Virus record (IMG/VR): IMGVR_UViG_3300001390_000008
Location: 1 to 64,000 of that record
Origin: a virus
DNA: 64,000 nucleotides
Strand: one strand, 5' to 3'
In this document: piece after piece, positions 53 to 63,390 of the stretch
How the letters are laid out: each line of letters starts with the position of its first letter
Position numbering within the stretch: position 1 is the stretch's first letter
Program-made: the position numbers and the translations under genes
The notes under the pieces: model-generated
Told to the model about the DNA's origin: nothing
Seen by the model: only the letters and a program-made list of their open reading frames with translations
The model's database searches: none

Positions 53-457
53 TCATGTGCAGTCTTCCGGCGTTTCTACTCTAGGTAATTTACCTAAAAA
101 TCTCTGGCATAACTTCTTTCGCTCTTCTTCTGGCATATAGTTTTTTATTTTACGGAATAACTGCAATGCCTGCATTTCTGGCATTCTGTGTTCCCTGTCA
201 AATGCTAATTCTATACATAGCCCCAATATATTTTGTGGAAATATATCTTCTGTATAGTATTGAAAGACTAGCCAATAAGACCACCGGGCTTTAGTTCTTT
301 CAGGAACTAAAGCACTGTCATACCATCTGGAAAAGAACTCTATAAGAGTTAATGATTCATGTGCAGAAAAAACGGCTAAGGAGGGGGTACATGCCCCATT
401 ACCCTCCAGATAATCGTGCACTTCTTGCATTGTACTTTGGCCGGTAAAAAGAGCCAT
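53..457 (-). CDS. hypothetical protein
   Basis: 134 aa ORF, 6 bp downstream of the preceding minus-strand gene. Confidence 0.6.
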   Translation of the reverse strand: MALFTGQSTMQEVHDYLEGNGACTPSLAVFSAHESLTLIEFFSRWYDSALVPERTKARWSYWLVFQYYTEDIFPQNILGLCIELAFDREHRMPEMQALQLFRKIKNYMPEEERKKLCQRFLGKLPRVETPEDCT

Positions 458-463
458 GTCATT

Positions 464-952
464 TTAAACGCCATCAGTTATGGGCAATCTTATTATCCCT
501 GTAGCGCCCCACTGCAATACATAATCTGCGGTCACATTACTTACTGCCGCCCCAAGGTCTATAGCTAAGAGTAGAGGGGATGTAGCAGTTGTGCCGCCCA
601 CCTTATATACGACTGCCCAAGTAGCGTTACTAAATCCATTAGTCGCATCCTGTAAAAAAGTAATATCAGGGCCATCGACTTTAACTACACCGTTATCCCA
701 ATTTACAGTAATTGGGGATATCAATAACCCGCCTGTTGGGTAAGTACCTACAGCACTCACCTCGTTAAATACAACGTCTAACCAGTGCAGATCTGTGGTG
801 ACTGTATCATAGTCGGGTTGTGCTGTAAGTAGCGCACAATTAATAGTATCCGCACCCCAATCTATTGGAAGGCCTGCTAGTCCATGCAGTGTCCCGTTAT
901 CCATTAAACTTATTGCATACCCTCGAAAAGGTCTATTATCTCCTGCTGCCAT
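464..952 (-). CDS. putative virion structural / tail-fibre-associated protein
   Basis: 162 aa, Gly/Thr/Val-rich beta-type composition, at the distal end of the tail module. Confidence 0.55.
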   Translation of the reverse strand: MAAGDNRPFRGYAISLMDNGTLHGLAGLPIDWGADTINCALLTAQPDYDTVTTDLHWLDVVFNEVSAVGTYPTGGLLISPITVNWDNGVVKVDGPDITFLQDATNGFSNATWAVVYKVGGTTATSPLLLAIDLGAAVSNVTADYVLQWGATGIIRLPITDGV

Positions 953-962
953 TATACTGCTC

Positions 963-2195
963 CTATATAAATGCCTGTATGGCTAATCTTGAAGCATCTG
1001 TGCGGGCCGTTATTAGGCCACCTACTACAATACGCTTCACCCAGAATGCCTTTACTTCTCTCCCCAGTAAATCTCCTACAGTTATTGCTGCTGTTGAAAA
1101 TACAACCCCTGCCGGGGCCACATCTTCAGTAGCTACAGTAGCTGCTACCCCCGTAGTTATACCATCCCCTACCCCCACCAAATCAAGACCTAGCTCTATA
1201 CTATCATTAACTGGCTGGGTTATTACACTTATAGATACATTGTACATTGTGTTACTGCGAGTATTTTTAATATAAAAACACCTATAGTCTACACTTCTTG
1301 CATTAATATCCAAAAAGGAAATATTATCATACGTATTATTCCTAATCGAAGATATAGTTATCTGATCAGCTAAATCTACAGATGGATTAATACCATCATG
1401 GTATATATATAGCTGCCCCTCTGTATAAACCCCTACTGTATAGTTACCTGCAATACTGGCACTTACACGGGGGCTTTCTGTACCCCCAAGAGACTGCCAT
1501 GTATACTCTGGCGGGCTACCGGTATACACCCGTAAAGTACCTGCTCCTGATGGGTTACCATAGACTTCTATTATATTAGCCCCTGTTATGTTTACCGGCT
1601 GTGTAAAGTTTTGTGATAATACCCCGCTATTACTGGCTAAAGAAATCATACCACCAAGGCTAACTGCCTGATCCTCATTAGTGGCCCCACCGGAATAGAT
1701 AACTGCCAGATCACCTATAGACTGAATAGCATCAACTGAGGCTACATGCCCCCCCAAAATCCCTATAGATGCCGCGTGTGCAATAGTGGATGATTGATTA
1801 AGGCCATAAGCTAAAACTCCGGCTACTTCTATACTGCTTGTCTTTGCAAGCAACTGCAAACTAGCGGAAGATAAAACACCTGCTAGAGATATCTGCGGTA
1901 CCTTTGCTGTAAGTCCATTTGTTGTAAGTAGGGCAGCATCTTGCCCCGTCAATATAAAAGAACCAGAACTGGTAGATAAGATCCTGCTGTATAATAATGC
2001 AGCATCTGTACCTATAGTAGAAAACGCACCAGAGGCCGCCACCAAAGTAGTGGCGCTGCTATTATAAAGTAATACTGCGGCTTGCCCAGATAGAGAAAAA
2101 GCGCCAGAATCAGCAGTAAGCGTTGAGGTGCTACTAGTAATCCCTGTTGAGGAGGGTCGTCTTCTTATACTAGACGCACCACGTATTATAGACAT
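963..2195 (-). CDS. putative minor tail / virion protein (paralog of 3522..4310)
   Basis: N-terminal SG(A/S)F-x-x-x-G(Q/T)-x-A-x-LL repeats; C-terminal half aligns by eye with 3522..4310 (NITG...YGN..G.GTL; YRCFY). Confidence 0.6.
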   Translation of the reverse strand: MSIIRGASSIRRRPSSTGITSSTSTLTADSGAFSLSGQAAVLLYNSSATTLVAASGAFSTIGTDAALLYSRILSTSSGSFILTGQDAALLTTNGLTAKVPQISLAGVLSSASLQLLAKTSSIEVAGVLAYGLNQSSTIAHAASIGILGGHVASVDAIQSIGDLAVIYSGGATNEDQAVSLGGMISLASNSGVLSQNFTQPVNITGANIIEVYGNPSGAGTLRVYTGSPPEYTWQSLGGTESPRVSASIAGNYTVGVYTEGQLYIYHDGINPSVDLADQITISSIRNNTYDNISFLDINARSVDYRCFYIKNTRSNTMYNVSISVITQPVNDSIELGLDLVGVGDGITTGVAATVATEDVAPAGVVFSTAAITVGDLLGREVKAFWVKRIVVGGLITARTDASRLAIQAFI

Positions 2196-2199
2196 AAGA

Positions 2200-3513
2200 C
2201 TACACTTTAATTTCTGTTACTTTAATAAAAGAATTCGCTTTTCCTCCATATACGGGGGCACCTGCCGCGTCTGCATTTATATATGCTGTTCCACTACCTA
2301 CACCCATCCTCAGCTTAAACGTCGTTGCTATTGTGGAGTTTGAAGTATATTCAAAATCAACAAACGCACTTGAATACATAATAGAACCATAGGACATAGA
2401 AACGGCATCAGCTCCTGCATTACTATCCCTAAATAGTGCCATAGCTACTGTATCTTGCTCCCAACTGCCCCACATAACAGCCTGAACGTGCAATATACTA
2501 TTAGCATATTTGGGGGTATACAAGATTGTCGTTATTTCCTGACCTTCTGTATTTTGCGGGATTGTATTATCCCATGGAGTTAGCGCAGTAATAGTTGTTA
2601 CTGTAGTATAGTCTGCTCTTAGGTGGCCTACAACACCGGTTTGGGTAGCACTTATAGAATCCCCTACAACTTCATTTCTAACACCATAAATAACAATAGC
2701 AGTATTTGCTATAAAATTTTCTGCATCCAATGTAGGCCTAATAGTTATCCTATTTATAGAACTAACATTCTGCCAAAACATATTAGTTATATTAACCGAT
2801 AGATTAGTTGGGGATTCTCTACCAGCAAAGGATGTTGAATCGCATAATTTATATCTATTTTCTGTATACCCTTTTATATTAATATATAAATTCCCATAGT
2901 AGGAAGCTAGTGAGGCGTTAGTGCTAGCTTGACCAATAATAGCATCATTAATTGGGTAAAGTCCTACACTGCCCGCCCCATATATAGTTGCTGATTTATA
3001 GTTAGTTGAAATAATATCATTATTGATATACATCCGTATATTATCGTACCCGGTAGCAGCTTCGGTAGTTCTTGCATCTAGTAGCTCTATGTATAAATCA
3101 CCATAACCTTGACTTATATTTTGTATATCAAAAATTCCATCCACTGCTAGAATTTCTTCATATAGTTTAGTTTTTACCTGCTTTATACTTGTCGAGCCGG
3201 CTAAACTAGATTGTAGATCACCCGTAATATCATAAACACCCGTACTAATACAGGTAGTAACTATAGTAGCATTAGTCCCATAAGAAACTAAATTCTTATC
3301 TTGTGGTAAGTTTACTGTTGCTCCTGCTGTAGTAAATGTCTGTAACCCATCAATACTCTGAATAACAAATATATTACCAGCCGTTACCCCAGTAGAGGGT
3401 ATTGTAATTGCGAAAGCACCTGTGCATCTATAGGTTACAGAATCATCCCCCGCCCCTATATCCGCATCTGCTATTGTGAAAATACCTGATTTAGGTACGA
3501 TAGTAGTAGACAT
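2200..3513 (-). CDS. putative tail fibre / receptor-binding protein
   Basis: 437 aa modular Thr/Ser/Ile-rich protein; C-terminal PWDNTIPQNTEG...TFKLRMG...SFIKVTEI resembles phage fibre tip modules. Confidence 0.6.
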   Translation of the reverse strand: MSTTIVPKSGIFTIADADIGAGDDSVTYRCTGAFAITIPSTGVTAGNIFVIQSIDGLQTFTTAGATVNLPQDKNLVSYGTNATIVTTCISTGVYDITGDLQSSLAGSTSIKQVKTKLYEEILAVDGIFDIQNISQGYGDLYIELLDARTTEAATGYDNIRMYINNDIISTNYKSATIYGAGSVGLYPINDAIIGQASTNASLASYYGNLYINIKGYTENRYKLCDSTSFAGRESPTNLSVNITNMFWQNVSSINRITIRPTLDAENFIANTAIVIYGVRNEVVGDSISATQTGVVGHLRADYTTVTTITALTPWDNTIPQNTEGQEITTILYTPKYANSILHVQAVMWGSWEQDTVAMALFRDSNAGADAVSMSYGSIMYSSAFVDFEYTSNSTIATTFKLRMGVGSGTAYINADAAGAPVYGGKANSFIKVTEIKV

Positions 3514-3521
3514 ATCGGTTC

Positions 3522-4310
3522 CTACGGGTTAGTAGTTAAAGAAAGACCTAGTGAGAATGTATTTTGAGCACTGGTCAGCCTATTTTCTGCCGGGGTTACC
3601 TTCTTTATCCAAAAAGCATAACTCTCGCCGGCAAGCATTGTTCCTAATAGTAGCCCGGTACTAGAACTACTGGGGGATGCGAAGGTAAGGGCTGATAGTA
3701 CATTAGTGGTATCTTCCGTATCTGCCAGGGGGCCGAGAGCAACCCCATTAAGCCCTGCTGGATCTAGACTAACAGATACAGTATCCGCCACATCTGGCTG
3801 GGCATTAACCCATATTGTTACTTTATATGCAGTAGCCGTAGCGTGATTATTTTGCAAGTAAAAACATCTATATTCTGTATTACCTGCAAATGACTGTACC
3901 TCAGTAATATCATCAAATATATTTTGGGGCACATTTGATATAGTCACTGAATCTTGTGCAGAGGCGGCAGGAAAGTTTGCGTATATCACATCTATTATAA
4001 GATACCCTGCCGCATTTCCTACAGTGTATGTGCCGTCCCCCGTAATATTTTTCCCAGTTCCGTTAGGCGACCCCGGAGGATACCACCACAAAGCGTCTGT
4101 GGACTTTGTATATTGTAAAGTACCTATTCCTTCCGTATTGCCGTAAGCATCTACTACAGTTACCCCAGTAATATTAGTGACCCCGGCAGCACTCTGGCTT
4201 CGTACTTCATTAGGAGTTCCCGCAGAGATAGCCCCACCTATACTTGCTAAAGGGGTTATAACGGCGGGGCCAGAAAATAGCATCAATATATCTGTAATAC
4301 TTATAGCCAT
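3522..4310 (-). CDS. putative minor tail / baseplate protein
   Basis: NIFDDIT...GNTEYRCFYLQN and YAFWIKK motifs; position in tail module. Confidence 0.6.
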   Translation of the reverse strand: MAISITDILMLFSGPAVITPLASIGGAISAGTPNEVRSQSAAGVTNITGVTVVDAYGNTEGIGTLQYTKSTDALWWYPPGSPNGTGKNITGDGTYTVGNAAGYLIIDVIYANFPAASAQDSVTISNVPQNIFDDITEVQSFAGNTEYRCFYLQNNHATATAYKVTIWVNAQPDVADTVSVSLDPAGLNGVALGPLADTEDTTNVLSALTFASPSSSSTGLLLGTMLAGESYAFWIKKVTPAENRLTSAQNTFSLGLSLTTNP

Positions 4311-46767: not shown

Positions 46768-47013
46768 TTATTTTCCTTTTAATAGCGCATTTAACTTAAC
46801 TACACAAGCGGGTATATTACAACGAAAAACATAGTCATACGAATAGCGCCCTATGGGCGGCTGTAGCTTCAAACTGTCCCCGGTTCTTGACCGTATTTTA
46901 CACCAGTAGTCAAAATCCCCATCTGATGATAAATAATATTTTTCATCAGATGTCATTATGTGTCCTTTTTTAGAAATAATGTCCTTTGTTGTATATTCCA
47001 TTTTTACCCCCAA
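46768..47013 (-). CDS. hypothetical protein
   Basis: 81 aa ORF. Confidence 0.5.
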   Translation of the reverse strand: MGVKMEYTTKDIISKKGHIMTSDEKYYLSSDGDFDYWCKIRSRTGDSLKLQPPIGRYSYDYVFRCNIPACVVKLNALLKGK

Positions 47014-47402
47014 TTTGCGGCTTTGTACCCTGGAGCTTCATCTAACAAATCTTCCATGATGGTTACCAGGATCTTATAAGCGTCGGTTTGGTAGTAGTCG
47101 TCAGTTTCGCAAGACTGATACTCTAAACAGCTAAGGTGCTTAGCTATCTGCCCCGTAGACACCGAGACACTACGCTTTACAAGTTCCTTGCACTGGTTAA
47201 TATACATAAAATCCGCTTCGTCGGGCTCCCTCTCGTAACGTGCGCTAACTGACCTAATGTTTTCCTCGGCTAAAATTTCAGCTATTTTTTCAGGCTCAAA
47301 TATGCCCCGCCCCGCTAAAATTCCATAGTTACAGCATTTGTGGGCCGCTGCATAACTTGCCAGTGCTGCGATAGTTTCGGCTTGTACTAAAAATGCACTC
47401 AT
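47004..47402 (-). CDS. conserved early phage protein
   Basis: MSAF..; ENIRSV..RY; CLEYQSCE; GAGG RBS. Confidence 0.7.
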   Translation of the reverse strand: MSAFLVQAETIAALASYAAAHKCCNYGILAGRGIFEPEKIAEILAEENIRSVSARYEREPDEADFMYINQCKELVKRSVSVSTGQIAKHLSCLEYQSCETDDYYQTDAYKILVTIMEDLLDEAPGYKAANWG

Positions 47403-47491
47403 AATTTTTACCTCACCTTAATAGTATTAATCTTTATACCAATAGCCATAAATACAACGCCAGGTTTAGATGTAAATCCGTCATTATATGC

Positions 47492-47831
47492 TTATTATTA
47501 AACCATAATTTGTAATTAATTACAAGAAAACATTTTTATACGAACATAAATTTAATTTATATTAGAATTTAATTACATTAGAATATTAGAATTTAATTAT
47601 ATTATTATATTTTGCAAGCGATTTCAAAATATTATTGTATTAGAATATTATGATATTAGAATACTCTAATATTACTAGTGATACGAAATCTCTGCGATGG
47701 CAAGTGGGTGTCGTAAATATGACTAGTGGTGAGAAATCTCTGCGACCAGAGATGGGTGTGAGGTACAGCTCTGCGACCAGAATCGGGTGTCGTACTAGTG
47801 GTGGAAAATCTCTGCGGTGGTGAATGGGTGT
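47492..47831. repeat. modular AT-rich repeat locus 3
   Basis: Copy of the locus 2 core plus four CTCTGCG-N9-GGGTGT boxes (47690, 47738, 47769, 47810). Confidence 0.85.
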
Positions 47832-48112
47832 TTATTTTACTAACCTAATAGCAGATCTTAATATTATATTCTCTTTTTGTATTCTTTCAATATCTACTTC
47901 CATCCCAGCAGCCCACGACATTAAAAGATTAAAAGAATCTTCTACATCGGTGCCTTTTACTGCTTCCTGTACATCAAAAATATGGTCTTGTATACTCATG
48001 TTTGCCACTCCTTGCTAATGTATTAAAAACTGTGTGTGCAGTAATCGGTATCCCAATATACGGAGGCCCACGTATTTATGTCTAAATGCCCCATATAATT
48101 ACCTCACCTTTG

Positions 48113-48310
48113 CTAGCCATATTCAGATATTATTTCTATTGCCCTTTTTCTTAGTAGCTTAAGACTGCTACAGATTATTTCCTCCTCAATATTTCCATTA
48201 GCCTCATACTGCAATTTGTATAGATTTACATCTATTTTAGAAATATCCACTGAATAATAAGAGAAGCCCTCTATATCTAATGTAGCTTTAAATATCGTTA
48301 TTAATGCCAT
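48113..48310 (-). CDS. hypothetical protein
   Basis: 65 aa ORF. Confidence 0.45.
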   Translation of the reverse strand: MALITIFKATLDIEGFSYYSVDISKIDVNLYKLQYEANGNIEEEIICSSLKLLRKRAIEIISEYG

Positions 48311-48513
48311 TTGTTTTACTGCCCCGCCTTCTGCATATCTAGATATATTTAGTCAATGTGGTGGATTACTTTATCTGCTATCTCACTGGCAATTTCAGAT
48401 ATATATTCTTTTTCTTCACAGTCGCTTCTCTCAATTGCCTTCATCTTCACTTCCTCGTGTAGTTTTAGCGAACATGTTGCATTACAGTAATGCTCGGTAT
48501 GTATGCGTGGCTG

Positions 48514-49230
48514 TTAGGCATCAGAAATTCTGTCCTTTGCCGTATTAAAATAATCATCATCCAATTCAATACCAATAAAATCTCTACCTGTTTTTTTGCA
48601 GGCCGCGCCAGTTGTCCCAGTCCCCATAAATGGGTCTAAAACAACTGAATCAACTTTGCTAAATAATCTAATTACTTTTTCTGCTAATTCCTGCGGAAAT
48701 ACCGCGCCATGGTCTTTGCTTACTTTCTTTCCGCGCTTTATACTCCAAACATTTGAAAGCACCCCTCTATCAAACTGTGCAGTTTTAAATGACCTGCTTT
48801 CAGGCGCACTGTTTTGAAGCACAATCAAAACCTCAAATTGGCTATTCATTACGCCTTTCCCTATTGCAGGCTGCGCGTTTAACTTATCCCATATAATAAA
48901 TTCTTTTACTTTGCCGCTAAATTCACCAAGCAGTTTAAAAAGAGCAGGTTTGTTACCTGTGAGGAATTGCACATTGTAAAAAACCAAATCAGAAACCCTT
49001 AAACACTCATTTAAAACTTTCTTGTTAAACTCAAAATAATCGTCAATAGGCAAATTATCGTCAAAGCTTTTATATTTTGTACTTATCTCTTTAACTATCT
49101 GCCTAGAGCAATATTTACCATTTCTAATCCTGAGATTCATATTGTACGGCGGGCTGGTTAATACAATATCAACACTTCCGCTTGGTATTTCTTTCATTTT
49201 TTCTAAACAATTACCTCTTAATAATTTCAT
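48514..49230 (-). CDS. site-specific DNA methyltransferase (N4-C/N6-A, beta class)
   Basis: TSPPY catalytic motif; HGAVFP; VLDPFMGTGTT SAM-binding motif; FIGIEL. Confidence 0.92.
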   Translation of the reverse strand: MKLLRGNCLEKMKEIPSGSVDIVLTSPPYNMNLRIRNGKYCSRQIVKEISTKYKSFDDNLPIDDYFEFNKKVLNECLRVSDLVFYNVQFLTGNKPALFKLLGEFSGKVKEFIIWDKLNAQPAIGKGVMNSQFEVLIVLQNSAPESRSFKTAQFDRGVLSNVWSIKRGKKVSKDHGAVFPQELAEKVIRLFSKVDSVVLDPFMGTGTTGAACKKTGRDFIGIELDDDYFNTAKDRISDA

Positions 49231-49235
49231 TTGTT

Positions 49236-49586
49236 TTACTGCCTCGCCTTTTTTGCTATTTCTACTAGCTCATTCCAGTCACGATGGCCTGTGTTACAAT
49301 GCTTTATAGCTAAAACTAATAGTCTACCCCGCTCAGGTTCAAGAGAGAATATGTAATTTCTAAGCCCCTGCATTTCTGCGGTCTGTGTTCCGGCCCCGCC
49401 GCAGATACACTTCTTTCCGCTTACTGGCTTTCCCTGCCCGGCACAAACACTACACATAGCCGACTCTTTAGTACACTCTATGTGTCTCAATGTAAATTCA
49501 ACCATTTCATCCGCACCTAGATTATCCCATCTATTTAACTCATCTGCCTGCTTATTCCAGGCTTCTATAATATCGTTAATTTGCAT
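49236..49586 (-). CDS. hypothetical protein with Cys motif
   Basis: WNKQADELNRWDNL; CSVC..CICG. Confidence 0.6.
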   Translation of the reverse strand: MQINDIIEAWNKQADELNRWDNLGADEMVEFTLRHIECTKESAMCSVCAGQGKPVSGKKCICGGAGTQTAEMQGLRNYIFSLEPERGRLLVLAIKHCNTGHRDWNELVEIAKKARQ

Positions 49587-49682
49587 AGTAATTAGCTCCA
49601 GCCGACGTAGTGTGCGTCAGTATTTTCGTTAAATTTAAGCTCATGTGCCCCGCCCATTACGCGGCTGAGCATGGCGTTATAT
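49583..49682 (+). mobile_element. integron attC-like recombination site
   Basis: GCATAGT-N5-GCTCCAGCCGACGTA ... TACGCGGCTGAGC-N5-GTTATAT; the arms pair with two extrahelical bases. Confidence 0.75.
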
Positions 49683-49694
49683 TGCTCGTTCCCC

Positions 49695-49736
49695 GCTTGG
49701 ACTGCTTCGCCGCCAGTTAATTCAGTCGTTATAAAC
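49695..49736 (+). mobile_element. truncated attC (right part)
   Basis: GGACTGC-TTCG-CCGCCAGTTAATTCAGTC-GTTATAA. Confidence 0.55.
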
Positions 49737-50271
49737 CTTTCTGCTCAACAGTAACAATAGTATCGTTATGCCATCCGCCATGCGGTACTAGCAGTATTTC
49801 AAGTTGCTTAAAACCCGCTGTTTTTCCTATCCCACCGCTATTCCATCCGCATGTAATCGCCTTCCCTTTTGGCCTTACAATTCTGCTGATTTCTTTTTTC
49901 ATACTGCCCCAAAAGCTTGCTTGTGTTGTTTGCATATTCACACTCATATTAAGCGACTTATAACATTCACTTACTTGTCTTGGCGAATATGGCGGGTCAA
50001 AAAGAACAGTATCAATACTTTCATCTTCAAACATTTTTAAAAAATCAAGCGCATCTAAATGGTGACATGTATCAAATTCAGTATTCAGGTCATTAGTCAC
50101 GGTTGCTAGTTTATTACTATTTGCAAACGGATCAATGCTCTTGCCTGATAAATGCCTTTCTATTAACTCTCCTATAGGTTTTATACTAAATGTGTTTTTA
50201 TTAGGCATAGCCCAAACACGGCTTATAACAAGTCGCTCAACCGGACTCGTCTCTTCATTCGCTTCACTCAT
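49729..50271 (-). CDS. DNA adenine methyltransferase-like protein
   Basis: IDPFAN; TNDLN; LFDPPYSPRQ; HGGWHNDTI. Confidence 0.85.
   Translation of the reverse strand: MSEANEETSPVERLVISRVWAMPNKNTFSIKPIGELIERHLSGKSIDPFANSNKLATVTNDLNTEFDTCHHLDALDFLKMFEDESIDTVLFDPPYSPRQVSECYKSLNMSVNMQTTQASFWGSMKKEISRIVRPKGKAITCGWNSGGIGKTAGFKQLEILLVPHGGWHNDTIVTVEQKGL
50221..50270 (+). mobile_element. truncated attC (left part) inside the MTase 5' end
   Basis: GCTTATAAC-AAGTC-GCTCAACCGGACTCG; GCTTATAAC is complementary (8/9) to GTTATAAAC at 49728. Confidence 0.6.
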
Positions 50272-50693
50272 TTCACCATGCTCCTTGCTCTCCTGAGTAG
50301 TTTATCTACGCCCCCAAAAGAAGTGGGGTGCACGAATCTTGGGTTTTCTATTACGGCAATCATCTCACCTATCAGCTTGCCTCGGGCGGCTATTTCTTCC
50401 TCGTGCTCTGCCCTTGCCTCCTCAAACAGTCGATTACCATCAAAGGTTGCCGCTTTGTAGCCTTTTGACCAATCCTCTTCAATCTGCTTCATGTGTTCTT
50501 GCAACCTTGTAGCTGACTCTTCTGGTTTGTTCAGAGTCTCTACCCCTTTTTGCAGGGCCATATACAAAAAACTATTTATAGACATGTTCCTATGCTCTGC
50601 CTCCCTTTTTATCTCACCATATTCTACTCTGGGCATCCTGATGGCCGCTGTAGAGAGTGCCCGTTTACTTGTTAGAGGTGCTTGTTTAGTCAT
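50268..50693 (-). CDS. ribbon-helix-helix (Arc/HicB-like) domain protein
   Basis: AIRMPRVEYGEIKREAEHRNMSINSFL. Confidence 0.6.
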   Translation of the reverse strand: MTKQAPLTSKRALSTAAIRMPRVEYGEIKREAEHRNMSINSFLYMALQKGVETLNKPEESATRLQEHMKQIEEDWSKGYKAATFDGNRLFEEARAEHEEEIAARGKLIGEMIAVIENPRFVHPTSFGGVDKLLRRARSMVK

Positions 50694-50712
50694 ATCAATT
50701 TCCAGTGTTGTG

Positions 50713-50916
50713 TTAACCAGAATCGCTCAGGTACATGATAACCCTATTATGGTTAAGTCCGAATTTATCAACTATAGCGAAAAAAGCCTCGTCGTTATAA
50801 GCTATAGATTCACCTCGATGCAATCTTCCCTGGTTTTCTGCTTTCATCCCCTCAATCTCTGCCAGAGCACAAACTGCCTGAGAATTAATAAATGCTATCA
50901 GCTGCTCTTTGTCCAT
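50713..50916 (-). CDS. hypothetical protein
   Basis: EIEGMKAENQ.R...G.SIAY.DEAF motif. Confidence 0.6.
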   Translation of the reverse strand: MDKEQLIAFINSQAVCALAEIEGMKAENQGRLHRGESIAYNDEAFFAIVDKFGLNHNRVIMYLSDSG

Positions 50917-50917
50917 A

Positions 50918-51130
50918 TCAATCACCTGCTACCTGTTCGTAATCTTTACATTTCTTCGCGGCAATAATATGCTCCCTATATTCCTCTAGTGACCCATAAT
51001 TATCCATTTCCCAATAATTTTTATTGCATGATATTGTCGCACCATACCCAGGGGTAGCTTCAGAATACCCTGGGCAACCCATGTCAAAATAGAAATGTTT
51101 GCAAAACACACATAAAACATCTTCACTCAT
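50918..51130 (-). CDS. hypothetical Cys-rich protein
   Basis: CVFCKHF; GYSEATPG; C..Y. Confidence 0.6.
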   Translation of the reverse strand: MSEDVLCVFCKHFYFDMGCPGYSEATPGYGATISCNKNYWEMDNYGSLEEYREHIIAAKKCKDYEQVAGD

Positions 51131-51131
51131 A

Positions 51132-51332
51132 TCAATCTCCTAATTTATTAGCTAATTCCCTGAAATGTATACCGTCCAACCTCATGTCCTCGGCTAACTT
51201 ATCAAGATAATGCTCAAGCTTCCGTGTGCTTATCGTTTTCTGGGTTTCGCAAATGCCATATAAAACATTAAGCCTGGTGCCTGACACTAAAGAAGCCGCC
51301 TTCACTACGGCGTTTCGTTTCACATATGTCAT
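51132..51332 (-). CDS. hypothetical protein
   Basis: Bounded by junction repeats. Confidence 0.6.
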   Translation of the reverse strand: MTYVKRNAVVKAASLVSGTRLNVLYGICETQKTISTRKLEHYLDKLAEDMRLDGIHFRELANKLGD

Positions 51333-51333
51333 A

Positions 51334-51555
51334 TCAATCTCCTGAACTATCTGTTTGCTGACTACGCAGCTGCAAATACTCGATCAATCCTAATGCCTCC
51401 TTAGCAACATCATTAATTTGTATAGTGCAATAGCCATCTCTGCCCAGTTCGTCCTCACCATAAATTTCATAATCATTAGATTCAATCTGGTATGGTTCTG
51501 CTGCCCCCAGCTCGGCTAGCATCCATTTAATAGATGCAATGTCATCTTCAGTCAT
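51334..51555 (-). CDS. hypothetical acidic protein
   Basis: Bounded by junction repeats. Confidence 0.6.
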   Translation of the reverse strand: MTEDDIASIKWMLAELGAAEPYQIESNDYEIYGEDELGRDGYCTIQINDVAKEALGLIEYLQLRSQQTDSSGD

Positions 51556-51556
51556 A

Positions 51557-51793
51557 TCAGCCTCCTGTCTCTAGAAACCTCTGAATTATTTCAAAATCTT
51601 CAAATGGCATTTTGTTGCCTACTGCCTCCAGCTTTGCATAAGCCGCATCTTCCCACGTTTGGTTTCGCAGAATAGACAATTCAAAGGCTAACCGCCTCAC
51701 GATATCCCTGCCCGGCTCCAACATGTTTTCATCACTCATTAGCCGCGCTATTTCTATCTCAGTTACTTTTGTTTGCAGTTGTTTACTATCCAT
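51557..51793 (-). CDS. hypothetical protein
   Basis: Bounded by junction repeats. Confidence 0.6.
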   Translation of the reverse strand: MDSKQLQTKVTEIEIARLMSDENMLEPGRDIVRRLAFELSILRNQTWEDAAYAKLEAVGNKMPFEDFEIIQRFLETGG

Positions 51794-51794
51794 A

Positions 51795-52007
51795 TCAATC
51801 TCCGAATAGCTCTATTAATTCTCTTGCCCTTGTACTTGCACAATTACAAGTAAATGGGTGCTTACATATTTTTGGCCCCCCGCAATTACTGTTATATAGG
51901 TCTTCGAGGGCGGAATACAGTTTGGCAATATCACGGCTATATTGCTTCGTCATGATTAAGTATTTTTCTTTGTAGTCGATTTCATATTCTGGCATATTAG
52001 TCCCCAA
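51795..52007 (-). CDS. hypothetical protein
   Basis: CGG..C.H...C.C motif. Confidence 0.55.
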   Translation of the reverse strand: MGTNMPEYEIDYKEKYLIMTKQYSRDIAKLYSALEDLYNSNCGGPKICKHPFTCNCASTRARELIELFGD

Positions 52008-60528: not shown

Positions 60529-60882
60529 TTATCTCTCTATAAAATGTAGTGCATAAGTAGGAATAATAGCTATCTCCATCTCGGGGGCTCCCCTTTCATC
60601 AATGAACTCTATAACTATGGCTGGTATCTCTGTATTACATAGAGCAGCCTCCTCTATCTTGTTAAGCATATCTCTGGTAACACTAAATGATTTATTCTTA
60701 GTAGTCTTTGCCTCTATGCGGATAATACCATAGCACCCTTTAACATCACCTTTTTGGTGCCCAGACCCAGAACCGGGAACTAATGCACCTTTAAACCTAT
60801 TTGCTAATTCTAGCTCCTGTTTGGGGGAGCGTACATGGGATACACTCTGCTTACCCCGTTCGCTTTTAGGTATCTTAAGCAT
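60529..60882 (-). CDS. small PD-(D/E)XK nuclease (Hjc-like resolvase)
   Basis: QE..LA; PGSG..KGDV; IEAKTT. Confidence 0.75.
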   Translation of the reverse strand: MLKIPKSERGKQSVSHVRSPKQELELANRFKGALVPGSGSGHQKGDVKGCYGIIRIEAKTTKNKSFSVTRDMLNKIEEAALCNTEIPAIVIEFIDERGAPEMEIAIIPTYALHFIER

Positions 60883-63062
60883 TAAGTAATCCTACATATA
60901 AACTCATTAGGCATACCTAACTTTTCTGCCTGCTTGCGTATAATGTGGGTACGTAATTCCCAATATATATCGGGCTCCTCACGTAACATTTGTATAGCAT
61001 CTTCCTGTAGACTAAACTTAGTTTTATAGTCTAGAAATTCTAACCACTGATTTGCCCCCGCCCCACCCACAAAACCAAACTTCTTTGCTACTGAAAATAC
61101 AGTACGTGCATCATCTACATCCCCTACACCCATACCTGTTTTTTCATCAGGATCCCTTATTATAGTAAACTCACCTGTGCGAGGGCCGTTATTCATTTTA
61201 TTTTTAGTTATAGTATATGAATGTTCATTATGTGTGATGGTTTCCATTGCATTAGTATCGTTACCTTTTATCTCCCTATTTTTCATAATAATATCAAAAC
61301 TAGTAGCGTGGCCCAGCGCCCGGCCCCCTGGAACCTTTCTAGGGTTCATACCATGACCTCCAATATCACTCCTAAATTGATTGGTATTAACTAGTGTTAC
61401 GTAGTGATTTCGCCGCCTTTCCTCTATCATAATAGAAGTAGTCTTGCGTACAAACTCTGCAATAAGCCTGGCGTGGAAGGCAACAAGATGATCTTCTGCG
61501 CTGGATTCTCTTTCTTTCATTGGTTCCATAGCTGCGATAGAATCTACGACTACTAGGGAGGTTTCTACGGACTGTAGTATAGCATCTGCAATATCAAGTG
61601 CCATCTCACCTGTCTCGCATTCAATAACCTCTAAAGCATCTATATCCACCCCCAACTTTTCTGCCCATACACTTTCAAAAGTACCTTCGGTGTCTAGTAC
61701 AATAACTTTTTGATCTGGAAATTGCCTCTGTGCATTAGCTATTATCTTATTAGACAACATACTATTATGTGTAACTATATAGTCTTGTGTAATGTATAAA
61801 TTGTCTTCTGCCTCAATGCTAATACAGACCATATCACAATCTTCATCTGGCACTATATGTGAGATGGATCTTACTGGCCCTCTACGCTTTCTACCGCCAT
61901 AAGCCTCTACCTTTTTCTTACACGCCTTAAATGTGGGCACCCCCAAAGGCAGCACAATAGAAACTGTTTGCTCGTACACCTCATCTTCTTCTCTGTAACT
62001 TTGACTAATAGATGCAGTTCCCCCTAGTGACTGGGCTAACTCCTGAACACCTAATGCTAATTGCCTTGAGTACGAGTGATATCTAGCCCCTGCATAATGT
62101 TTATCTTCTTCCTTATTTAAATATACTGTAGACCCATCACAATCCATTAACCCGTTTAATAAAGAAATTCTGTCATCAATAGAGGCTCTTAAGTAGACTT
62201 CTGGGATAAACTTATCCCTAGATAATTTTCCCCATATACCTAAAACTCTAAGACTACTTATTGTCGTATTCCTTTTCTTTTTTTCTACATCAAATACCTT
62301 CCAGTGTCTAGTACCCTCCACGTAGGTTCTTTCTGCTACGATTACCCCACTGCCTCGTATTAGGCTATTTACATAAGCTAAAACATCTACATCATTTGTT
62401 GCTATATCTATACTCCCGGCCAAATTACCATTAGCTAACATTACCCCCATAAGGTAAGGGTTTATAGGTAGATTCTCACTATCAAAAACCACAGGAGATA
62501 CCAAAGGTATCCTATATTTACACATACCAGAATTCTTATCCCTTAGCCTACTATGAAATAATTCATCAGTTGTTTTTATAAAATGATTACCTGAGGTATG
62601 CGCTTGTTTCCTAGACTGAACATGCCATAGATGATCTTTCCCAACTACAAGCTCAGACTTATCAGTAAACGCTACTTTGTATGTGTGTATTCGCCCTCTC
62701 GGATATACTCCCGTGACTCTGGTTGCATGTCCGTCTGCCCCAATAACTAAATCGCCTACGGACAAATCTCCAAATAAACACCACCCATCAGGGGTCAGTA
62801 TATTATCCGTATATTTTTGGGCCTTCCCACAGTGTTTTTCCCCGAGTATGTGTGAGGATCTACTACACCCTATTCCACCTAGTGTTGAAAAATCTAGAAC
62901 AAAGATGCCCATAGAAATTCTATCTGGCTGTAGTATCTGCGAGCCCTTCCTTACAGAAGTATCCCCATACCTTTTTCTGACTTGATTTAGTGTATCCTTT
63001 AGCTCATTAGTCTTTTTTTCTTTCTTAACTGACTTCTTAGTAGACTTTCTACGCCTAGCCAT
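60882..63062 (-). CDS. recA: RecA/UvsX-like recombinase with intein
   Basis: LD..LGG; GEKHCGK|S; DTEG; VVDSIAAM; NQFR; PGGRAL; start reassigned to MARRRK. Confidence 0.9.
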   Translation of the reverse strand: MARRRKSTKKSVKKEKKTNELKDTLNQVRKRYGDTSVRKGSQILQPDRISMGIFVLDFSTLGGIGCSRSSHILGEKHCGKAQKYTDNILTPDGWCLFGDLSVGDLVIGADGHATRVTGVYPRGRIHTYKVAFTDKSELVVGKDHLWHVQSRKQAHTSGNHFIKTTDELFHSRLRDKNSGMCKYRIPLVSPVVFDSENLPINPYLMGVMLANGNLAGSIDIATNDVDVLAYVNSLIRGSGVIVAERTYVEGTRHWKVFDVEKKKRNTTISSLRVLGIWGKLSRDKFIPEVYLRASIDDRISLLNGLMDCDGSTVYLNKEEDKHYAGARYHSYSRQLALGVQELAQSLGGTASISQSYREEDEVYEQTVSIVLPLGVPTFKACKKKVEAYGGRKRRGPVRSISHIVPDEDCDMVCISIEAEDNLYITQDYIVTHNSMLSNKIIANAQRQFPDQKVIVLDTEGTFESVWAEKLGVDIDALEVIECETGEMALDIADAILQSVETSLVVVDSIAAMEPMKERESSAEDHLVAFHARLIAEFVRKTTSIMIEERRRNHYVTLVNTNQFRSDIGGHGMNPRKVPGGRALGHATSFDIIMKNREIKGNDTNAMETITHNEHSYTITKNKMNNGPRTGEFTIIRDPDEKTGMGVGDVDDARTVFSVAKKFGFVGGAGANQWLEFLDYKTKFSLQEDAIQMLREEPDIYWELRTHIIRKQAEKLGMPNEFICRIT
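61764..62822 (-). mobile_element. intein (Ala-start, class 3-like) in RecA Walker A
   Basis: AQKY..ILTPDGW; DHLW; MVCISI; VTHN|S; 353 aa. Confidence 0.88.
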
Positions 63063-63390
63063 TATCACTCTCAGTACTAATGTACTGCTCCACTTCATTC
63101 TCAAGCATCTCACTTACCTGATCTGCAATAGCCTCATAAGTCTCGTTCACCATTTCTTTATAACATGGCATCATAATAGATACATCTACCCGCAGGAACT
63201 CATACTGAGCTAAACTACGCGTTACCCCTGCCTTAACACTGACATAGGCGGGATCGACATCAAACACTTCAACCTCTTTTGTTACTAGTTCGGTTTCCTC
63301 GCCCTTTACTACTGAAGTAGTTACCGTCTTTGTAGACATAACTACTATCTTTTCCTTACTTTTTCTCTTACGCTTTTTCCGCTCTGCCAT
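63055..63390 (-). CDS. conserved hypothetical phage protein
   Basis: GVTRSLAQYEFLRVDV motif. Confidence 0.7.
   Translation of the reverse strand: MAERKKRKRKSKEKIVVMSTKTVTTSVVKGEETELVTKEVEVFDVDPAYVSVKAGVTRSLAQYEFLRVDVSIMMPCYKEMVNETYEAIADQVSEMLENEVEQYISTESDNG

Follow-up and report, generated by a model that had tools for sequence, protein, structure and literature searches.

The IMG/VR virus record IMGVR_UViG_3300001390_000008 is a single sequence of 93,804 bp with a CheckV completeness of 98%, and the window analysed here is its first 64 kb (64,000 nucleotides). All long open reading frames (ORFs) of this phage are on the minus strand. In this study, we examined a short region of the window in which two DNA methyltransferase genes are accompanied, on the plus strand, by sequences resembling attC, the recombination site of integrons. 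In gene order, ORF141 (50268-50693, minus) comes first and is followed by MTase2 (49729..50271, minus), a 180-aa DPPY DNA methyltransferase of phrog_11619 that occupies the position of an inverted cassette body, a gap of 142 nt, an orphan ORF of 116 aa (49236..49586, minus) and MTase1 (48514..49230, minus), a 238-aa N6/N4 DNA methyltransferase of PF01555. The plus strand carries site A (49583..49682), which is attC-like with full geometry, site B (49703..49734), a weak stretch resembling a 3' half, site C (50223..50247), an attC 5' half, and the isolated core GTTAGGC (48513..48519). An earlier interpretation of the letters, referred to below as the sequence-only reading, had proposed that integron attC sites lie here antisense to the phage genes.

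Site A starts with the R'' box GCATAGT (49583-49589), the 5-nt spacer AATTA and the L'' arm GCTCCAGCCGACGTA (49595-49609), which reads GCTC[C]AGCCG[A]CGTA with the two extra bases in brackets. A 48-nt centre separates this arm from L' TACGCGGCTGAGC (49658-49670), which is followed by the 5-nt spacer ATGGC and the R' box GTTATAT (49676-49682). When the minus strand was folded as single-stranded DNA, a stem was predicted in which one T and one G, complementary to the extra A and C of the left arm, are bulged, and the 12 nt at either end, including the R boxes, were unpaired; the extrahelical G and T expected on the bottom strand were thus both seen in the fold. Site A has the imperfect L''/L' stem, the extrahelical bases and the 5-nt spacers of an attC, and both bulges included it is in register with the consensus GYTC[C]AGCGG[A]C ... 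CCGCTGAAC-N5-GTTRRRY derived from 33 real sites. The R' box has the GTT and one departure from RRRY, and the two R boxes do not form the reverse-complementary pair RYYYAAC/GTTRRRY with its AAC/GTT triplet.

A covariance model, named R1, was built from 33 attC top strands of integrase-linked arrays. The sources were the arrays of 80 GTDB loci of the integron integrase IntI, retrieved with an alignment of three integron integrases, and three prophage or plasmid-type integrons, and the structure of 17 pairs in the R and L boxes was fixed from pair counts after alignment. The training set contained no sequence from the window or from Pseudoalteromonas phage PH101/H101, which together with Tetrasphaera phage TJE1 and Polaribacter phage P12002L exemplifies the attC clusters without integrase that Qi et al. 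2023 (PMC9892861) described in virulent phages, with N6_N4 methyltransferase cassettes recombined by IntI1. On 1.01 Mb of IntI loci, R1 gave 162 matches at E <=1, of which a single one was not on the side and strand of the array; it was a strong site read in reverse. Genuine array members scored as low as 17-20 bits. No match at E <=10 was obtained from 481 kb of phage DNA around MTase2 homologues (962 kb of strand). R1 recovered four sites of PH101 (31-41 bits) and three of TJE1 (22-29 bits), all outside the training set, with strand calls that agreed with the published bottom-strand primers (PMC9892861 supplement), and P12002L had no R1 match at E <=1.

In the whole genome of 93.8 kb, R1 matched site A only, over model positions 1-86 and with 19.5 bits (E 0.014), and with the filters switched off site A was still the sole convincing match within 47500-51500. 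Its coordinates, 49583-49682, are identical to those for which the sequence-only reading had claimed attC geometry, and the motifs themselves were found in place in the sequence; the genome-wide covariance search and the bottom-strand fold that this reading had proposed as a check gave, with our own model R1 and not that of IntegronFinder, one significant match and the stem described. The score is slightly below the 20-bit cut-off that Qi et al. applied with their own model. A rule-based attC scan of our own had produced 47 matches against 54 in shuffled sequences and had missed site A, as it demanded the AAC; it was too crude and was replaced by R1. Our interpretation moved from chance resemblance to attC because the start of PH101_attC2 (supplement of Qi et al.) proved nearly identical to a sequence of the window, which prompted the R1 test. 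The sequences at 49583-49682 and beside it appear to be of attC type, a view supported by the model match and the predicted stem.

Two half-site profiles, based on sequence only and made one for each attC half, were run on both strands of the genome. The best 5'-half (R''-L'') match anywhere was 50225-50247 (E 0.075; next best E 12), within site C, which consists of the R'' box TTATAAC, the spacer AAGTC and the L'' arm GCTC[A]ACCGG[A]C and ends abruptly after L''. Site C is identical at 21/24 positions to the top strand of the validated attC2 of PH101. A 22-mer pattern common to the two is present in only 4 IMG/VR contigs; an R1 attC match covers it at loci L090 and L091, and PH101 was model-verified at locus L002. 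The best 3'-half (L'-R') match was 49709-49732, within site B, which is made up of the L'-like CGCCGCCAGTTAAT, a spacer and the R' box GTTATAA. Site B is identical in 26/30 aligned columns to the right half of an aadA-type attC; its fold is not attC-like, and it had no R1 covariance-model match. Both best half-site matches are on the strand of site A and <=670 bp from it, and the chance of a top match within 700 bp on the right strand is ~0.0075 per half-profile.

What remains around MTase2 in the window is an R''-L'' half (E 0.075) on one side and a stretch like an L'-R' half (E 2.3) on the other. The sequence-only reading had placed it as a cassette between complementary attC cores, GTTATAAAC starting at 49728 and GCTTATAAC starting at 50221. 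The position stood and is matched by relatives with intact sites, but the sites themselves are halves, and the complementarity of the two cores adds little because TTATAA is a palindrome. Sites B and C were also considered as the two halves of one opened attC and rejected: the R boxes are complementary at 7/7 positions, but TTATAA is palindromic and the L arms pair poorly. The third core, GTTAGGC starting at 48513, is a canonical R'-type heptamer with no adjoining attC arm and no R1 match. Core heptamers GTTRRRY were not enriched (149 observed, 185 expected). The absence of an integrase from the window was confirmed and extends further, as no tyrosine recombinase or IntI was found anywhere in the 98%-complete genome. 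A cluster of attC sites lacking an integrase (CALIN) is defined by at least two nearby attC sites without integrase; the locus offers one full-length match and two half-sites.

MTase2 matched the phrog_11619 profile with E 3.6e-54 and had no Pfam match, and DPPY is invariant in the family alignment. The family comprises at least 8000 proteins, mostly of 165-170 aa, which start with M-x-I-N-R-V-W-A-M-P-N. MTase2 carries in addition an N-terminal extension of 14-16 residues, and its start codon and the stop of ORF141 share an ATGA. Residues ~9-16 (SPVERLVI) are the minus-strand reading of site C, and the corresponding motif [SN]P.[EQD]R[LIVF].I, the antisense of L'' plus spacer plus R'', occurs only in the closest relatives (78-85% identity). 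The proposal that attC DNA encodes the N-terminus of MTase2 holds for these residues but not for all 17. The TAA stop of MTase2 is the complement of TTA in GTTATAA and the stop of MTase1, within GCCTAAC, is the complement of GTTAGGC, so that both methyltransferase stops are indeed complements of GTTA cores. The 116-aa ORF has its GGAG in the L'' arm and its ATG in the R'' box of site A, in agreement with the claim that its ribosome-binding site and start codon come from attC DNA.

Relatives with intact sites were found among metagenome loci scanned with R1, four of which (L172, L173, L176 and L178) bear on the layout. At L173 (Ga0208299_1002336, 2915-3552), a methyltransferase 82% identical to MTase2 is exactly bounded by two antisense attC sites, which scored 27.3 and 21.4 bits; the R' core GTTAGGT, read on the complementary strand, gives the TAA stop of this gene, and a second N6_N4 methyltransferase follows directly after an attC. 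The contig is phage-like, of lambdoid type, with genes for NinB, RusA, a PAPS-reductase-like protein, HNH and three methyltransferases, and the 82%-identical gene is probably a clean, intact inverted cassette in a phage. The methyltransferases of L172, L178 and L176 also stop within an R box, so homologues bounded by cores, on whose existence the sequence-only reading depended, do occur. At L176 (Ga0114919_10169066, 178-730), the MTase2-family gene (78% identity) has the canonical orientation and stops within the R'' of an attC (26.9 bits) on its own strand; compared with L173, the family exists in both orientations relative to attC. Given the attC-bounded relatives, the layout in the window is therefore taken as an eroded version of a real cassette layout.

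The orientation of genes against the attC strand was also compared. In eight bacterial arrays, the longest ORF between successive attC sites was on the R1 top strand in 51/59 intervals and thus on the bottom strand in only 8/59, whereas the window has its attC top strand on plus and its genes on minus; the statement that the phage genes run antisense to their attC sites is therefore correct. In PH101, the published bottom-strand primers correspond to the gene strand. Locus L090 (IMGVR_UViG_3300020047_003700, 433-4276) is a phage contig with an endolysin gene and at least 10 attC sites (12-38 bits) on one strand. The opposite strand encodes its ORFs, among them a Mom-like gene for DNA modification and an N6_N4 methyltransferase; the start of this methyltransferase falls within an attC, and several ORF stops fall within the R' core. 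When phage intervals were pooled, the longest ORF was on the top strand in 2/14, against 51/59 in bacteria (Fisher p 5e-7; the phage arrays are few and possibly non-independent). The bottom-strand orientation does not hold for every phage, TJE1 being canonical. The orientation of genes on the attC bottom strand is absent from the discussion in Qi et al. (PMC9892861).

Taken with the known systems, the locus is like the phage CALINs in having attC sites, no integrase and DNA methyltransferases between the sites, and like PH101 in particular in that the experimentally defined bottom strand is the gene strand and site C is close to attC2. It differs from them in that one site has full geometry, with a degenerate R'', and the rest are halves, so that it falls short of the IntegronFinder rule of at least two attC sites, and in that its sites overlap start, stop and coding sequence whereas those of the phage CALINs lie between genes; TJE1 differs further in its canonical orientation. 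With the sedentary chromosomal integrons of Vibrio, Pseudoalteromonas and Shewanella it shares the R''-L''-L'-R' plan, the extrahelical bases and the spacing, and R1 scores site A over its full length, but the phage has no IntI, attI or Pc promoter. Cassette insertion outside att sites, at genomic GTT sites (bioRxiv 10.1101/2022.09.11.507474), would give an insert with a complete attC at one end and a GTT core alone at the other, an arrangement resembling site A plus GTTAGGC at 48513, although the core at 48513 is a bare 7-mer.

We consider that 49583-50247 is probably the worn remnant of a phage-borne attC cluster without integrase, that is, a decayed CALIN, in which MTase2 arrived as an inverted cassette, the sites eroded and the attC DNA is now used for gene expression. 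The arrival of MTase2 as an integron cassette is very likely. MTase2 would have entered the phage lineage as an integron-type cassette, either through a host IntI during infection or by recombination with an attC-bearing phage. The gene lies inverted, with its ORF on the attC bottom strand, and so is read in the direction of all other phage genes. The erosion of the sites is shown by the sequence: site A retains R', the L stem and the two extrahelical bases but not the AAC of R'', the site upstream of MTase2 is reduced to R''-L'', and a third site to an L'-R'-like half. The present use of this DNA likewise follows from the sequence, with a TAA stop from the complement of the R' core, an N-terminal extension of MTase2 translated from the R''-L'' half and ATGA-coupled to the upstream gene, and, for the 116-aa ORF, a GGAG within the L'' arm and an ATG within the R'' box of site A. 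A host IntI may have mediated the arrival, and recombination activity has presumably been lost since; mobility at present is unlikely.

Several observations weigh against this interpretation. The R'' of site A has no AAC and is complementary to R' at only 3/7 positions, so one defining box is missing; its 19.5 bits are in the low tail of real attC sites, and R1 E-values are rough; and site B, at E 2.3, is not significant by itself. Eighty IMG/VR loci with methyltransferases 65-85% identical to MTase2 have no attC by R1, and most members of the family are therefore not cassette-borne. The flanks of the closest MTase1 relatives, in phages Y7 and SHOU24, hold no attC either. The data fit arrival through IntI and through ordinary recombination between phages alike. 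The contigs of the source metagenome showed no excised or alternative joints within 48000-50700, though contigs are blind to rare forms.

A rival to the decayed cluster is a working one, in which a host IntI would still act on site A, perhaps together with GTT cores, so that methyltransferase cassettes could be acquired, lost or exchanged during infection. This we regard as improbable. Site A does retain the structural cues for IntI (the L stem, two extrahelical bases and 5-nt spacers), IntI1 recombines phage attC sites of this sequence type as efficiently as control sites (PMC9892861), and the preprint cited above reports IntI-mediated cassette insertion at non-att GTT sites (bioRxiv 10.1101/2022.09.11.507474). 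The order of the two genes also varies, since at L178 the MTase1-like gene is upstream of the MTase2-like gene, the reverse of the window. Yet the R boxes of site A are unpaired and its AAC/GTT triplet is broken on one side, the 93.8 kb contain no second complete site, sites B and C being halves, and the sites now form part of coding sequence and start signals, where recombination would disrupt genes; nor were variant joints seen in the source-sample contigs. The inverted cassette layout postulated by the sequence-only reading is partly supported, but for its further suggestion of a pool of cassettes moved by a host IntI there is one full-geometry site, its AAC lost, and no evidence that such a pool is mobile now.

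That the likeness is fortuitous, an ordinary imperfect hairpin with AT-rich heptamers in a genome of 39% G+C, is disfavoured and seems very improbable. It would account for the lack of GTTRRRY enrichment and the result of the loose rule-based scan, for an RNA fold of 171 nt that is unremarkable (z 0.19), and for the self-complementary TTATAA and the weak E-value of site B. It does not sit well with a sole full-model match in 188 kb of searched strand at E ~0.01 when 962 kb of control phage strand gave none, with three independent best matches co-located on one strand (~0.0075 each), with the 21/24 identity of site C to a validated phage attC, or with strong attC sites at the same two positions around homologous genes elsewhere. 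Comparably small odds attach to the idea that an RNA-level element came first and the attC likeness is secondary, namely a coupler or attenuator that hides the GGAG of the 116-aa ORF until a 26-codon leader is translated. A 26-codon ORF, MLSRVMGGAHELKFNENTDAHYVGWS (49592-49672, minus), extends through the hairpin of site A, with its stop 5 nt ahead of the start codon of the 116-aa ORF, and the 3' arm of the mRNA-strand stem contains the GGAG, 9 nt before that ATG; judging from this arrangement, the 26-codon ORF may be a translational coupler for the 116-aa ORF. Such an element leaves the R' box, the spacers, the consensus-matching positions of the bulges and sites B and C unexplained, its leader has no evident ribosome-binding site, and as a later co-option it is compatible with a decayed cluster and so is not a true rival. 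The hairpin was also considered as a terminator, which was rejected as the gene (minus) strand has no T-run tail.

The idea of the sequence-only reading is not new, as attC clusters with methyltransferase cassettes in virulent phages were already known (Qi et al. 2023, PMC9892861). What is new is one more uncultured phage, the finding that its sites were eroded and exapted, a connection of the phrog_11619 methyltransferases with attC cassettes, and a gene orientation on the bottom strand that PH101, L090 and L173 have as well. An uncultured vent phage thereby joins the short list of phages with integron recombination sites, and a very widespread small phage methyltransferase is linked to integron cassettes through relatives with intact sites. 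The locus also illustrates a fate of captured sites, which is decay combined with reuse, here for a stop codon, an extended N-terminus and a start codon with its ribosome-binding site. As sites decay and are reused, standard attC finders will undercount past traffic from integrons to phages. A bolder and rather doubtful idea is that marine phages of integron-rich hosts keep a pool of 'mirror' DNA-modification cassettes (methyltransferases, Mom-like) on the attC bottom strand, which host IntI would swap between phages and host arrays during infection, the window being a fossil of that traffic. If so, phage transcription would both read the genes and expose the recombinogenic strand, and the two orientations of the MTase2 family (L173 versus L176) would bear on how cassettes are made or inverted.

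MTase1 matched PF01555 with E 4e-37 (128.8 bits; gathering cut-off 26.7) and is 74-76% identical to the methyltransferases of phages Y7 and SHOU24. The view that it too is a cassette was not upheld, as there is only the 7-mer core at its stop and these relatives are without attC. Just 2/150 ORFs of the genome end in RYYTAAC, and the MTase1 relative at L178 (55% identity) likewise ends within an R box; with an RYYTAAC-type core at the stop and one relative, the cassette evidence for MTase1 is thin. A 33-nt direct repeat (48298-48330 and 49218-49250; 88% identical, 0 expected by chance) flanks a 920-bp unit made up of MTase1 and a 31-codon ORF. Each copy consists of the final five codons of an ORF, TAA, AACAA and then the ATG and first codons of the following gene, and ahead of the lower copy lies a relic of 6 codons, MQKAGQ*, that resembles the end of the 116-aa ORF (..KKARQ*). 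The boundaries of the repeat differ from those of the attC sites, and the repeat looks like a module insertion that duplicated a translational-coupling junction.

Orphan phage methyltransferases are known for an anti-restriction role. Both genes match families of this kind (PF01555 and the small DPPY methylases of phrog_11619), no partner endonuclease was seen near either, and by analogy both enzymes most likely methylate the phage DNA against host restriction; in this comparison the locus is set apart by its attC sequences, as most members are without flanking attC (0 matches in the 80 loci).

Neither Pfam nor PHROG gave a match for the 116-aa ORF, no homologue was found in a search of 5.8 billion proteins, and searches for loci related to this ORF and to ORF141 returned no relatives. 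BLAST of the region and of the 200-nt spacer against 50,697 phage records gave no meaningful match, and Rfam on 47000-52000 gave neither an attC family nor any other relevant match. The public runs containing this stretch are hydrothermal-vent metagenomes, probably including the source sample: two runs, probably from that sample, hold the stretch as contigs at ~730-875x, and two further runs of the same studies hold small identical fragments. The replication protein of the phage (53035-55962, minus) shares 47% identity with its counterpart in the Pseudomonas PaMx31/SM1 group, whose phages have genomes of ~93 kb; its relatives match in two pieces covering 65% of its length, and it has a Hint domain associated with Hom_end. 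A RecA-like protein (60882-63113, minus) carries a LAGLIDADG domain, and both proteins probably contain inteins. The palindrome TTATAA occurs 46 times in the whole genome against ~93 expected from dinucleotide shuffles (z about -4.8), a depletion that may reflect restriction-site avoidance.

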